Both the position numbers and the translations under genes were made by a program. 64,000 nucleotides of DNA from Amoebidium appalachense (taxonomy: Eukaryota; Protista; Ichthyosporea): contig CAVNZM010000002.1 in the NCBI GenBank assembly GCA_963693365.1, positions 310,001 through 374,000 of the forward strand, read 5' to 3'. Below, piece after piece: positions 3,728-63,771 of this stretch. Numbering within the stretch: position 1 is the stretch's first letter; each line of letters starts with the position of its first letter. Below the pieces are notes generated by a model. That model ran no database searches and was not told where the DNA came from. It saw only the letters and a list, made by a program, of their open reading frames with translations.

Positions 3728-3881
3728 GAGTCATATACCGAGGTCAGCTGCCGAAATCAGAGTTCACAGGCCGAGTCGGGTGGGTTCATGACCGACGCAC
3801 CGAAGGTGCGGAGGTCATGAACCCACCCGACGAGGCCTGTGAACTCTGATGGAGGCAAGCTGACCGAGGTAAATATGACTC
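3728..3881. repeat. 154-bp interrupted palindrome (hairpin) with a GAA loop and regularly spaced GA/GA mismatches; likely part of a non-autonomous DNA element
   Basis: Arms gagtcatat...cgcacc and ggtgcg...atatgactc pair around GAA at 3802-3804. Most interruptions are tandem GA opposite GA. Confidence 0.8.
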
Positions 3882-4596: not shown

Positions 4597-4673
4597 GAGG
4601 TCGCATGGAAACCGGGAGGATGGGGGGAAACCAGCTGGTTTCTACCCACCCTCCCTGGTTTCCATGCGACCTC
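4597..4673. repeat. 77-bp near-perfect palindrome
   Basis: gaggtcgcatggaaacc...ggtttccatgcgacctc, centred on ccagctgg. Confidence 0.85.
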
Positions 4674-6069
4674 ATCTGAATAAACTGAAGTTCATTTAGC
4701 AACCTCCCAATACATGAACCCCACGACCAAGCGTACAAACCACCAATAGAACTGAAAAAGCCAAAGCTACGAAATAAAAATAAAGCGACAAGTGACAAAG
4801 GACACCAGCGGGCAAAACCTTAAGTGTACGTGTATGCGTGAAACTAGTTTGCTAGCAACTAGTCATATGCATCGATGTTGACCAGACCACACTCCGCAAG
4901 AAGACATCATTACTGCTGCTTCCCAACAGGCCCCCCTCAAAACCTACCGAGGCACAGCAAGCAAGTCAGCCTCTAAAAGAGCAATGCAGACCAAATCTGA
5001 GCTAAAAAACAATCCCAACGGGCCCGGCCCCTAGATAACCCGGAGAAACTAGTACTGCATCTAGCTCTCTGATAAGGTGGCCTAGTTGTGGCAGGGCACA
5101 CAGAAAAACACAATTACAGAATGCATGCAAGCAAACCCGGTCATTGCCATACGACTGGACGCTAAGGACTGGCAGTCACTTGGAAAGCTCCCCGACGACC
5201 AAGTAGCCGCCCCTCCACTCACGCAGCGCAGAAGTAGCTGAAGAAGTTGCAGCAGCCCACCGCGCGCCAAATGGTCGCGTAGAAGCGTAGACAGCAATGT
5301 AGAAGTTACCATAGGTTGCAGTGGACCACCAGGCGTTGAAGAAACCACTTCTCAAGCGAGAAACTCCGCGAAAGGGAGATGCCCCCACACTCTCACAGCA
5401 GTAGGAATACACCAGGCCACACCACACACATGCTGCAGTCACTTTCCCTGAGTGGGACTCCCTCCCACCACAAAAAGAAGAAACGAAGGCCTTTATATAC
5501 CTGCCATGGTGAAGAATCGGAAAAGAGAATTTTTTTCTATTGATTGGATCTTCAAGTGCTTGGTCGGTGTTAAGGCTCCTTGAAAGCGTCTCAAAGATTA
5601 AAAACATTACATTATTTAGCATATGTATGTGCAAAAATATTATTTGAATGAAATCGTAGGAGTTAGATTTTGTAGGCCTACCTTCCTTGCACATCTGTGA
5701 GTGGCACTACATTACATACAATATATATATAGCTACATAAAAATTTCAAAGCTTCTTGCTATAAACCCCAACAGAGTTCATCTAGGAGTTCGTAGATCTT
5801 TCCCGTGAGTCGTGAGTCAGTGACGCACCAAGACGGCACTCAAAGTGAGTTGACTGAGTCTGAAGTTCGTTTCAACAGTTTGGGATTTGCTAGAGCTGTG
5901 CCCATTTCACCTACACTTCATTCAGGAGGAGAAAAGGTTAGATCTTATTCAAAAGCCAAACCTTTTGGCAGTTTGAAGCAATAGTTATTTTGCTCGAGTT
6001 AAGAAAAACCAATAGAACAGGAGGGCACAAAACCAAAAAGGCCCAACACGATCTTTATTTTTCTCCCCA

Positions 6070-15592: not shown

Positions 15593-15737
15593 ACACACCT
15601 GTACTGTAGATGGCATTGGGTGTCGTGAGGATGGGCTCTAGTTGTGATGCACACGCTTCGTGTAAGCACCTTTGTTGCAACATCTGCATTCTCTTGAATC
15701 TCGTGGATGTGTATTTGACACCCTCTACCCCATCTTT

Positions 15738-15772
<35 letters not shown>

Positions 15773-16191: not shown

Positions 16192-16446
16192 ATGGAGACA
16201 ACAGAGGTGAGATGCAAATGGTGGCACAAGCAGCAACGGAGAGGGATGGGTGTGTGTGTGTTAGGTGTTTGTGTGTGTGTGTAGGGGTGGGGGGGGGGGG
16301 GGGAAGACAAGGGAAGGGACAGTGTGTGATCGTGTGATCTTTTTCAGTGGCCACTAACACTGGGGGTGTGCAGCCAAGGAGGGGCCCATCTATGAGACAA
16401 AGTGGAGCCCCACAGCTGACGAATTTGTGGTTGTGCACGGATGTAC

Positions 16447-16493
<47 letters not shown>

Positions 16494-17330
16494 CGGGCTA
16501 AGGGGTCGAAACTCAGACGCAATTGATGACTTGGGCCCTCCCTGAGGATGGGCTCTGCTTATGACGCATACTGTGCGCATGGCTGATGCTGCATACTTGA
16601 ATGTTTGCCTTTGCATGTGTCCTGCACCATGCTTCTCATCGTGTATGCGTACTTCGTACTGTGTTCCGCATTCAAACCCCCCTGTCTTCTTTCAGAGGTG
16701 TCCTTTCAGGACAGACCACTGTGTGGAGACATCTTTACTTCCATGCAACCGGGCATGGTTGCTCTGTGTCGTGCATCTGTAAGCACATACGTGTTTGTCG
16801 CTGCACTGCATTAGTTTGCACACACATCTTCACCGTTTTGCTCACCTTGCTTGCATAAGCAACCCTGCTCGTCTTTGATCAAGACGGGTTGACCCACCCA
16901 AGTTCAGTTGATGCTGCTGTCTGAGTTGGAGCGTCGTATATACGCGGGCTAAGGGGTCGAAACTCAGACGCAATTGATGACTTGGGCCCTCCCTGAGGAT
17001 GGGCTCTGCTTATGACGCATACTGTGCGCATTCCTGATGCTGCATACTTGAATGTTTGCCTTTGCATGTGTCCTGCACCATGCTTCTCATTCTCATCGTG
17101 TATGCGTACTTCGTACTGTGTTCCGCATTCAAACCCCCCCCCCCCCCCCCCTTCCTCCCTCTCCCCGTTGCCCTTCTTTCCTCTCACTTTTTCTCAACGC
17201 CCCAAGAGTCCTTTGCCTCTCGTTTCTGAGGATGAGCCCTACTTGGCACGCTTTGTGTGCTCCTATTTGCAGTTCCGCCTTGGCGTGTCTGTCGTGCATG
17301 TGTACCTCGTACTTTGTAAGCATTCTAGGC

Positions 17331-17361
<31 letters not shown>

Positions 17362-17492
17362 GGGGGGGGGGGGGGTCCTGTGCAGCCTTAGCCATTTTTT
17401 TCAAGCTGGACCTAACGTGCACGCACATACACACACTTACACACCTCCACACACACACACACACATACACACACGTGAGTACACACACAAAT

Positions 17493-17555
<63 letters not shown>

Positions 17556-17570
17556 AGTACACACACACAT

Positions 17571-17631
<61 letters not shown>

Positions 17632-17664
17632 AGTACACACACACACACACACACACACGTGAGT

Positions 17665-17695
<31 letters not shown>

Positions 17696-18052
17696 TACAC
17701 ACACACATACACACACACACAGTCATGCCTGCCAAGGCCACCCTTTTTGGGCCGCAGTGCAAGCCCCTCTTCGACTTTGGCACCGGAAAGCGGAACACGG
17801 TGCTCTTCAGTCCGCATGGTCACATCATCTGCCTGGCTGGGTTCGGCAATCTGCGCGGCGAGATGGTATGCACCAATGGGAGTCGGGGATTAATGGCTAT
17901 ATATGGTTATTTGGGTATATATGATCATTCATCGCATTGTATACATCCGGGGGGGGGGGGGGGGGGGGGGGTGTCTGTGTGTCTGTGTGTGTGTGTGGGG
18001 GGGGGGGGGGGGGGGGATGGAGGGGAGGAAGGAAAGGAAGCATAAAGGTGTT

Positions 18053-18083
<31 letters not shown>

Positions 18084-18575
18084 GGGGGGGCGGCACGGCA
18101 GGATATGATGCACCGGTGTGGATGTTTGCATGTGGGGATAAGCTTCATTGACGCCGTGCATGGTCATGCCTGAACGTCTACTTTCAGTGTTCATGGGGTC
18201 TGGACCGTGAAGTTCTAACGCATGGGTGGGGGTTTTATAGGAATTTTGGGACCGCAAGAAGCTCAAGAAGGTCAGTGTGGTGCAGGCGCCTGACTCGACC
18301 ATCTACAGCTGGGCCCCAGATAGCGAGCACCTGATGACCGCCACAACATCCCCTAGGATCCGGTGCGCGGGGGGGGGGAGAGGGGGGGGGATGCGTGTGT
18401 GTGTGTGCGCGTGTGTGTGTGTGCGTGTGTGTGTGTGTCCGAGGGTGTCAGCGGGGTTTTTCTGACGCATTTGTGAGCAGGGTGGACAATGGGCTCAAGG
18501 TGTGGCACTATCGGGGTGACCTGCTCAGCAAGAAGGACTACAGCGAACTGCTCAATGTGCGTCACAAATCATGAG

Positions 18576-18607
<32 letters not shown>

Positions 18608-19285
18608 ACTGCCCTTGCCTGCATAAGCAACCTTGCTCGTCTCTGATCAAGACGGGTGACCTACTCATGTTCAAGTGAAACAGTATCTGAGTTGGGTTTC
18701 GTTAACGAGGGGAATAGGTCGAAACTCGGGTACTGTGGATGACGTGGGCCCCCCCTGAGGATGGGCTCTGCTTATTATGCATACTCTTTATGTATGGCTT
18801 GCATTCTGCATCGTGTTATCCGTTTGTTCTTGTGTACTTCGTACTTTTTGACGCATTCAACCCCCCCCCCCCCCCCCCCCCCCCCCTTCTCCGCCCTACC
18901 CCCCCCCCCCCACCCCTTTCTCGTCTTTTTCCGCCGTAGCCAAACCCCTCTCCCCCCCCCCCTCCCCCCCCCCCCCTCCCCCCCACCGGCGAACGCGCGC
19001 GCACATACAAACACACACGTGCACGCGCGCGCAAAGTGATAATAATAATAATAATGATGATAATAATAATAATGATAATACACATACACACGCACACATG
19101 CACACACTACATGTATTTGTAAGGACACCACAGCAACTGGGATACCGATGTCGATCCTCATCCTCGTCATACTAGCATCCTGCCTTCCCTTCCTCTCACT
19201 TATTTGAGCACACGTGAGGCCCCATTCAGCCATTGGCCATTGTCGTTCATTCTGCTCACCTCCCCCCCCCCCCCCCCCCCCCCCC

Positions 19286-30046: not shown

Positions 30047-30998
30047 TCCGGACGAGAATGTTGAGATAGGACGTGGGGGAAGAGGGGGAGGGGGGGGGGG
30101 GGGGTTAAGAAGTATTCGGCAATCAGAAGAGAACTTGAGCTGTGAGATTGCAGATAGGTGTGAGGGCCAGAGATTTGAAAGTCTATTGCAAAATATCAAG
30201 TGAAGGACACAAAACCGACATTGGGGGGCTTCAAATTGATTGTGTATGCGGTCTGAGAGTACGAATTAATCAATTCATGACGGACAACACAACGTGCCAC
30301 GTTGTTGCAAACTTTTTGTTTACAAGAAGAATATACAGTCTAAGCAGAGCCCACCCTCGAAGGTGTGCCAAGTAACACACAGTATCCTATATGGGGGGAA
30401 ACGGGAGGGAGGGGGGATGGGGGGGGGGGGGGGGGGGGGGTTTGCACGTGCCAGGGGGGATGGCTACTAAACCTGCACAGACTGCCACAGTGAGATACGA
30501 TTCAGTTCACGTATGTGGTCTGATATTCGGCTATTCGGTCAGAGAAAGAGAGACATTATTGATAACGAAGGTACTCAAGGGCTAGAAAAGCATGTGTTCG
30601 TTAATATTTTGTGTTATCCATGGGCTCATAAACACGCCTGGCTCCCTCACAATGCAGTAAGAAGCACAAACTGAGGATCCAAGTGTGCCTCCCAGTTGTC
30701 TCTGTCTCCGTCTTACGATACACCTTCCCCTCTTACAGCGACGACAGTAAAACGCACATAGAGGTTAAGACACAGTTGAAAAATGCATGATATACACTAA
30801 ATAGGAAGAAAATGCCAAAGGGAAACGCAGACACAAAGGAAAAACAAAACTTAACTCAAATGTACAGAGTTACTTCTGTCCACTTTGAAAAAATTCAGTG
30901 TCAGAAGGGGGGGAGACACTCACAGTGACGAGGTTCCTTTTATGGGCCACCAGCTCGGCCAGCGTGTGCTCTTGAAGGAAGTCTTTAATGTTCAGCAT
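23806..30998 (-). CDS. Four-CBS-domain protein (AMPK-gamma/Sds23-like), 8 coding exons, ~320 aa
   Basis: Exons 30998-30924, 29660-29508, 28653-28448, ~28012-27863, ~26397-26274, 25532-25434, 24686-24612 and 23889-23806 join in frame. CBS motifs include [21 protein letters not shown]...[36 protein letters not shown] and [21 protein letters not shown]. Confidence 0.88.
24691..24808. repeat. Intronic minisatellite, ~4 x 27 bp, abutting a splice acceptor
   Basis: Unit approximately ccccctgccgtcagctcccaataaaac. Confidence 0.9.
26755..27492. repeat. Intronic minisatellite, ~21 x 34-36 bp, with G-quadruplex potential on the minus strand
   Basis: Unit cccctcctgcgtcccaatcatccccattcccacc, varying mainly in C-run length. 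Each unit has four G-runs on the transcribed strand. Confidence 0.95.
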
Positions 30999-42917: not shown

Positions 42918-43409
42918 GCACACACACACAAACACACACATTGCTGCAACGTGAGGGCCACCACGCAACACTTACACAGCGTCTCGGCAATCACACGCGA
43001 ACAGTACACAAACAGACGACAAAACACAACTTTTATCCAACGTGCCCAGTGCACACCATGTATACTGCTTGGACATGAAGTTTTTTTTTAAAAATGTTGT
43101 CTGAGGGAAATGGCCCTGCCACAGTGCAGAAGAGCAGTAAATTTGTACAGTAGACTGGGGTATCCGGTCAATTTGGTCCCCCCCCACCTTGGCGAGGCTT
43201 TTCCCCCCGGGGAAGGCTCCCCCACCCCCTCTCCCCCTCCCAACTCTACCTTTTGCACACGCCACCACCACCACAAGCACACCGACCTGCAGCCAATAAC
43301 AGTCCTGGGTGGCAGCAACAAGACATGTGTGCCCTTGCACAGGCCACCCCCCACCACACCCCGGCCCGGGGGGGCCACTCTTCCCTCCTCCCCCCACCCA
43401 CCCCCCTCC

Positions 43410-43505
43410 AAGGGTTAGCTCTGCTTCGTATGCATAAGCTTTTTGTGCCGCACCTTGCATCAGTGTGTTGATGTCACCGTACTCTAATATCACATTTTAA
43501 CAATA
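43410..43505 (+). mobile_element. Highly diverged 3' fragment of the poly-C element family
   Basis: gctctgcttcgtatgcata...cgtactctaatatcacatt followed by poly-C; it matches only short motifs. Confidence 0.35.

Positions 43506-47730: not shown

Positions 47731-63771
<16,041 letters not shown>

Follow-up and report, generated by a model that had tools for sequence, protein, structure and literature searches.

Penelope-like elements of the Naiad and Chlamys types are the closest described systems. In the available portions of the survey by Craig et al. 2021 (PMC8557442), Naiads are described as animal-only, autonomous and (TA)n-biased, and are reported to lack canonical hammerheads, having been flagged only as HHR_core or HHR_half_core. 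The same portions describe non-autonomous Chlamys elements (MRC1, Chlamys-N4_cRei) with pLTRs, head-to-tail multimers, a (C)n target and intron insertion, and the excerpt available of Lopez-Cortegano 2022 (10.1101/2022.05.23.493040) reports a Chlamys pair, truncated at the 5' end, that inserts into (C)n stretches of introns. Non-LTR retrozymes, according to excerpts of two sources (PMC7229834; 10.64898/2026.07.22.740005), carry type I hammerheads, occur as dimers to long arrays and avoid introns, and their circles have been shown. For the hammerhead itself, the sections considered of Eckert et al. 2023 (PMC10085705) introduce the types SGC and CSG, the latter known there from only two sequences, and assume that the core is never more than 1-2 nt away from the stems; the SGC descriptor published there allows linkers of at most 8 and 15 nt. 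With regard to template use, the part available of Frangieh 2024 indicates that the Poseidon element PAc primes internally in vitro and without target homology, that uncut RNA is its main template and that its hammerhead cuts only with protein, hammerhead mutants inserting normally.

The repeat family described here was found in a window of 64 kb, the whole stretch of DNA that was analysed. It is probably best explained as a high-copy, protein-less family which inserts into poly-C, ends at a constant 3' position, shows 5' truncation as well as partial tandems, likely relies on a Naiad-type Penelope-like reverse transcriptase (RT) for copying in trans and whose intact units each fold as a predicted split-core hammerhead. 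The window is eukaryotic and its genes are intron-rich. Two copies, A1 and B1, are sense-oriented within introns of an eIF2A-like gene on the plus strand, which is spliced in RNA contigs (splice joint 17864-18240). A 42-residue exon of this gene matched EukProt proteins at 100% in one entry, at 88% in an entry with the prefix Ihof and at 67-74% in the other six, four of which are named as animal proteins. We take the prefix Ihof to stand for Ichthyophonus hoferi, an ichthyosporean; judged by these 42 residues, the host is likely an ichthyosporean and thus a single-celled relative of animals. Intron sequence throughout the window abounds in G, C and CA runs; runs of at least 10 nt number 76 for C and 89 for G. 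Other genes encode CBS, BTB, sugar transporter and Upf1/senataxin-like helicase proteins, and foldback or MITE-like inverted repeats occur at 49797-50063, 3728-3881 and 4597-4673.

Five copies that all end at gcattcaa and begin at different points had been listed in the preliminary description, and all five were recovered, each on the plus strand, each with this 3' end and with differing starts. Copy A1 (16493..17132) lies in a C-run near the start of its intron and comprises 1.42 units; its internal head-to-tail junction, consisting of gcattcaa, A and six C (16668..16683), is the predicted start of reverse transcription. Copy A2 (54090..54609) comprises 1.15 units and carries the substitution A6>G in its core at 54479, and copy A3 (50403..50542) is truncated at the oligo-C immediately before the core. 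The claim that two copies exceed one monomer thus held for A1 and A2, with unit lengths of 451 and 452 bp and junctions at 16675 and 54157, so that two of the three subfamily A copies display a partial tandem or pLTR-like structure and no array in the window is longer than 1.42 units. At two family-variable sites both units of A1 carry an identical allele; 2 substitutions and a 6-nt duplication nonetheless set them apart. The remaining two listed copies had been taken for truncated 451-bp monomers, which turned out to be wrong, as they form a separate subfamily B: B1 (18608..18860) is 5'-truncated and flanked by C-runs on both sides, and B2 (56864..56973) is truncated at the core and followed by only a short C-run. 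B1 and B2 are identical to each other across 104 nt and share about 80% identity with subfamily A over the core of about 170 nt (23 mismatches and 12 gap columns in 172). The unit of subfamily A measures 451-452 bp and that of subfamily B about 750 bp, the latter estimate resting on single contigs of 776 and 783 nt from low-depth runs that extend about 500 nt upstream of 18605.

A profile search of the window with nhmmer (E<1e-5) recovered four further, decayed copies that had been missed before. One at 15601..15740 on the plus strand (E 7.7e-7) has C-runs on both sides and a core altered at C3. A second on the plus strand follows right behind A1 (17226..17330, E 4.4e-6), starts at an intact CUGAGGA and stops before a C-run. 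A third lies on the minus strand (30230..30386, E 6.8e-6) with a C-run upstream on its own strand, and a diverged 3' fragment on the plus strand is located between two C-runs (58915..59020, E 2.2e-6). The profile matches themselves span 15601-15732, 17226-17325, 30244-30386 and 58927-59005. Weaker candidate relics of the family were observed at 63037-63110 (E 0.05) and 43403-43500 (E 0.16). The family consists of two young subfamilies plus older ones. As claimed earlier, no credible open reading frame was present, neither an RT nor an endonuclease being found among 196/213 complex ORFs scanned in the window, and the repeat has neither a poly-A tail nor a tRNA or other Rfam head.

The proposed preference for poly-C was borne out for four of the five listed copies, the 3' end of which is followed by a long C-run, but not for the copy ending at 56973, which continues with AAA and four C. 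For comparison, C-rich tracts cover 2.3% of window positions, versus four of the five listed copies lying inside them. The four additional copies provided a target test on copies that had not been chosen beforehand: on their own strand, three of them are preceded by a long C-run, and in every one of the four a run of at least 6 C lies no farther than about 25 nt from the 3' end. In addition, 34 contigs of sequencing run X1 and 69 contigs of run X8 showed poly-C on the upstream side of the oligo-C at 18749, indicating that 18749 is a hot spot of truncation; microhomology to the target is one explanation, stalling at the hairpin beneath it the other. Apparent skips at insertion sites in contigs were read as poly-C artefacts. 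Summed contig depth reached 1.6-3.1e5 within the element compared to 4-8 in the flanks in genomic run X1, and 0.3-1.5e6 compared to 7-30 in genomic run X2; this roughly 10^4-fold excess is to be read as an order of magnitude and not as a copy number. The head-to-tail junction was present in runs X1, X2, X9, X12 and X20. In runs X11, X12 and X18 the element occurred at low depth in consensus-like contigs, which we read as a low-level presence of the organism and not as a wider host range. One contig of run X2 (joint 18732/18722) had telomere-like G-rich repeats between two pieces of the element, which could be due to insertion at telomeric repeats or to healing by them.

The repeat is dispersed, high in copy number and non-coding, with 5' truncation, an insertion bias towards (C)n and a 3' end that is fixed in the five listed copies; genome-wide, the view of 3' ends was confined to loose ends in contigs. 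The earlier proposal of a non-autonomous Penelope-like element targeting (C)n, with 5' truncation and partial tandems, is supported and corresponds to the descriptions of Chlamys; the repeat matches a non-autonomous Naiad/Chlamys Penelope-like element and in its anatomy is of a known kind. Pattern scans for the element in viral and metagenome contigs yielded 0, 0, 0, 1, 2 and 2 loci (L001-L005), pattern-only matches that were treated as chance, and these scans revealed no autonomous element sharing the 3' end of the repeat. An RT-motif scan of viral contigs found nothing, and no EukProt entries were among the best 120 of 1266 Naiad-RT homologs, which gave no lineage information.

The preliminary description had also suggested a rearranged hammerhead that escapes canonical searches. 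This suggestion was upheld at the level of a predicted fold, as every core nucleotide is present in the intact A and B copies. In A1 and B1 the pieces run from the cut site to GAAA and on to CUGAGGA, which is the non-circular SGC order, and the core nucleotides (CUGANGA, GAAA and UH) as well as stems I and III are complete. The element does not display the three-way junction with circular block order of the canonical types I-III. The predicted domain of A1 spans 16853..17015 on the plus strand and is composed, in this order, of P1, the P2 hairpin, the 5' strand of stem II (16891-16895), the long P3/stem III hairpin, GAAA (16959-16962), stem I' (16989-16992) and the core CUGAGGA (16993-16999). 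By analogy with hammerhead numbering, self-cleavage is predicted to occur after GUU at 16927..16928. The corresponding predicted domain of B1 spans 18621..18777 on the same strand, with the stem II 5' strand starting at 18658, GAAA at 18721, the core at 18755-18761 and a predicted cut at 18693/18694. Stem I is short (4 and 3 bp, with the triplet GUU), N7 is G and the linkers measure 22 and 19 nt. The better strand for stem II is the GACC located upstream of the long hairpin, which forms 5-6 pairs and yields -8.5/-7.3 kcal/mol versus -5.6/-2.3 kcal/mol for the residues right after the core. Behind the core, helix P1 pairs upstream and is followed by the P2 hairpin, which leads into stem II. In the model, P1 and P2 stand as two additional helices in place of the backbone link from A9 to G10.1, an arrangement that holds up structurally.

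The hinge of the long hairpin (16904-16916/16970-16979) fits the kink-turn pattern in subfamily A, with a 3-nt bulge, tandem G-A pairs and U-U; subfamily B keeps the G-A pairs there without the bulge. Palindromic loops occur in P2 and in the linker between stems I and II (16876-16881, 16934-16943 and 18699-18708). Their palindromy is kept and their sequence differs between A and B, and such loops may favour dimers.

A four-strand descriptor of the split-core arrangement, the bounds of which were fixed after the element had been seen, matched only A1 and B1 on both strands of the 64 kb; A2 failed because of the substitution A6>G in its core. For each of the two matching copies, a single one of 50,000 shuffles matched, and under a harder null, in which the hairpin was kept and the 3' part shuffled, 232 and 78 of 50,000 did so (at most 0.5%). 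In a three-row alignment the 43 pairs were 98.4% paired and displayed 4 two-sided changes, 2 of them in stem II, both strands of which changed from A to B; scores as high arose in 21 of 500 control shuffles. Within run X8, a stem II pair varied at both positions to a similar extent (18662 T>C in 4.2% and 18716 A>G in 4.1%, unphased). No core position differs between A and B, and variation in X8 stayed under 1% at G5, A6, G8, A9, GAAA and the U of the cut site; most neighbouring positions were equally invariant. About 1.3% of the X8 depth breaks C3-U4, which possibly stems from flanks at the truncation hot spot. According to a rough energy estimate without pseudoknot penalty, the split-core fold is at the level of the nested minimum (-62.2 versus -61.9 and -57.7 versus -55.0 kcal/mol). 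Folding z-scores of the core were modest and did not distinguish the strand (-1.5 to -2.1 for plus, -0.2 to -3.4 for minus), and a competing hairpin involves the core in predicted folding. An Rfam search of 16400-19000 and 54087-54612 gave no ribozyme at E<=10; the sole Rfam ribozyme match was a partial one of stem II and GAAA of B1 to the type I hammerhead (E 1.5), which is not significant. A hammerhead on the minus strand was rejected after descriptor searches, the P2 loop was rejected as core because G8 is a C there, and readings as twister, pistol or HDV-like ribozymes were rejected by eye against their consensus and by Rfam.

Scanning prokaryote genome collections for Naiad-type RT motifs yielded 20 loci (L006-L025). 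These contigs are filed in bacterial genome records and apparently represent eukaryotic contamination of bins. One of them, L007, filed under a bacterial MAG, is a whole Naiad with an N-terminal GIY-YIG domain, CxC and DKA motifs and an RT. Its direct repeats are 4558 nt apart, and both contain the hammerhead fold (518-610 and 5076-5168), in which the core is followed by 29 nt forming two hairpins and then by stem II, stem I having 7 bp, stem II 6 bp and stem III 3 bp. Any match was obtained in 5 of 300 shuffled sets of the 20 loci. The fold was present in this one locus and in none of the other 19, many of which are partial or decayed and several of which have tails without the fold. The similarity between the element and L007 is at the level of the fold only. 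The Naiad-RT tails at L015:1484 and L022:2694 share a 12-mer of the element's core and next strand without the remaining fold. In the portion available of the supplement of PMC8557442, the opened form was seen by eye in 10 Naiad consensus records of about seven families, including three from Acropora and two from Octopus, and a contiguous type-CSG hammerhead was seen in 7 Naiad records of File S5, including three from Nippostrongylus and one from Stegodyphus; no such form was seen by eye in the Chlamys passages of that portion. These counts come from string searches in which part of the 54 records was inspected, with names taken from the next FASTA header and the order of listing. The three Acropora tails have the core followed by A, so that stem II has to come from upstream. 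From ctenophore to mollusc Naiads and in L007, the core nucleotides are kept while the stems change. The literature searched, mostly outside subscription papers, gave no description of a split-core fold in Naiads and none of Penelope-like elements from ichthyosporeans.

None of the runs was annotated as RNA; X9 and X20 were taken as RNA on the basis of a GT..AG joint. RNA contigs of X9 tile the whole unit, head-to-tail junction and predicted cut site included, with a depth of 60-185 compared to 30 for host mRNA. The junction is crossed by RNA contig X9 record 24 and by X12 record 11, and X9 record 26 crosses the predicted cut site unbroken. The depth of element RNA follows the DNA profile and is not flat over a unit length, the junction being under-covered relative to the 3' part as in DNA. 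Read-through of many genomic copies explains such depth no worse than any alternative; contigs show neither ends nor levels nor circles, and poly-A libraries would lose circles. Among the contigs listed, none indicated a pile-up of 5' ends at the predicted cut site. Intact copies situated in sense orientation in introns of an expressed and spliced gene argue against fast constitutive cutting. As copies extend past the predicted cut site, an uncut multimer or a circle is needed as template; an uncut multimer appears reasonably probable, and a circle, as suggested in the preliminary description, is a possibility that we regard with some doubt. The strict annealing of a cut G strand to the internal oligo-C, as proposed earlier, had to be loosened, as A2 has AAA at its internal junction and AA at the 3' end.

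Taken together, head-to-tail copies may be transcribed by read-through. By bending at its internal loop, the long P3/III hairpin would let its apical loop, which contains the cut site, a stem I strand, a stem II strand and GAAA, dock onto the base of the same hairpin, the partners there being the GACC strand on the upstream side and stem I'-CUGAGGA on the downstream side; P1 and P2 would take up the space from A9 to G10.1. A cut after GUU, which is probably slow or helped by protein, would free a unit-length RNA which may be closed to a circle. The partner element would supply a GIY-YIG nuclease that nicks a (C)n run on its G strand, the A2-3 C6-7 junction would serve as the starting point of reverse transcription, and copying may often halt at the internal oligo-C, either because the target offers microhomology or because the hairpin causes stalling.

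Several of these observations would also suit a hammerhead-like domain that no longer cuts and is kept as a folded RT-binding signal, the template always being uncut read-through RNA. Intact copies are located in sense introns, X9 record 26 passes the cut site unbroken, the contigs listed show no pile-up of 5' ends there, and in the part available of Frangieh 2024 hammerhead mutants of Poseidon PAc insert normally, with protein being needed and uncut RNA as the main substrate. The invariance of the core between A and B, together with its variation of less than 1% in X8, speaks only weakly against such a loss of cutting, because most neighbouring positions are equally invariant; retention of the core across ctenophore to mollusc Naiads and in L007, while the stems change, also stands against it, and we consider this explanation unlikely. 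A plain type-SGC hammerhead, in which the G residues that follow CUGAGGA-U build stem II and GACC upstream acts as a mere off-switch, would agree with the S-G-C order and the extra U before G seen in natural SGC ribozymes (PMC10085705, sections considered), and a relaxed three-block descriptor matched A1 and B1 and none of 20,000 shuffles. However, the residues in question form only a G-C and a G-U pair before a G-G mismatch, so that stem II breaks after two pairs, and the published descriptor fails on account of both this broken stem and the overlong linkers. Moreover, the upstream strand pairs more strongly and covaries, and the three Acropora tails, with A after the core, cannot supply G10.1, which renders this arrangement very improbable.

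The repeat might also be SINE-like or a rolling-circle (HUH) repeat, moved by a non-Penelope enzyme and carrying a hammerhead-like fold by chance. LINE/SINE and some HUH elements combine a fixed 3' end with truncation on the 5' side, and no partner element was seen in the scans described above. Nevertheless, the lack of a poly-A tail and of a tRNA or other Rfam head, the partial tandems and microsatellite target as Penelope-like traits, and a fold that is common to Naiads and arises by chance in at most 0.5% even under the harder null all point away from it, and it ranks as the least probable of the explanations considered. The poly-C family copied in trans by a Naiad-type RT, with a predicted split-core hammerhead, remains the preferred reading. 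Points against it are that the scans gave no autonomous partner, that the (C)n target resembles Chlamys whereas published Naiads favour (TA)n, that 1 of 20 Naiad-RT loci had the fold, that the descriptor was bounded with the element in view, and that stem I is short, the triplet is GUU and another hairpin competes for the core. Going further, the family may be a circular-RNA retrozyme in a single-celled relative of animals, built on an undescribed hammerhead topology in which a four-way junction opens the core between A9 and G10.1 and the remainder of the 451-nt circle would close P1, so that exactly the L007 fold results, and moved by a Naiad-type enzyme; this we put forward tentatively and with more doubt than conviction. 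If it were true, the Naiad lineage and its ribozyme would predate animals, and a clade said to be without hammerheads would use a rewired one to cut unit-length templates.

The predicted fold would overturn a stated feature of Naiads, the absence of a recognisable hammerhead, and would break an assumption of ribozyme searches, the uninterrupted link from the core to stem II. If the host assignment holds, Naiad-type elements would extend outside animals. The intact and young domain of 170 nt would further offer a bench substrate for the role of the hammerhead in Penelope-like transposition.

Compared to non-autonomous Chlamys elements, the family likewise lacks an ORF, is 5'-truncated and intronic, forms pLTR-like partial tandems and targets (C)n, but its host is no green alga and it carries a predicted hammerhead fold. 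With non-LTR retrozymes it has in common short non-coding head-to-tail units with one predicted hammerhead each and a presumed dependence on Penelope-like enzymes. Unlike these, its block order is permuted, its copies are mostly truncated and intronic, its circles are putative and the type I hammerhead expected in each unit of a retrozyme was not found. The types SGC and CSG share with the predicted fold the non-circular cyclic block order, all core nucleotides and the extra U after the core, whereas here two helices are placed between A9 and G10.1, the linkers are longer and N7 is G; the examples in the sections considered of PMC10085705 are mostly metatranscriptome or metagenome contigs without a tie to a retroelement. 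The same predicted permuted hammerhead was seen in the 3' tail or pLTR of Naiads; in the element its distance to the 3' end is about 170-200 nt. P1 is open in the element, in agreement with the tails from Acropora and Octopus, whereas in L007 P1 is closed as a hairpin, and the element differs from Naiads by the absence of a protein, the (C)n target and the likely protist host. The hammerhead variant appears to be unpublished and the host appears to lie outside the published range of Naiads. New are the likely protist host, the target (C)n and the finding of the closed form in L007; the element class itself is ordinary.
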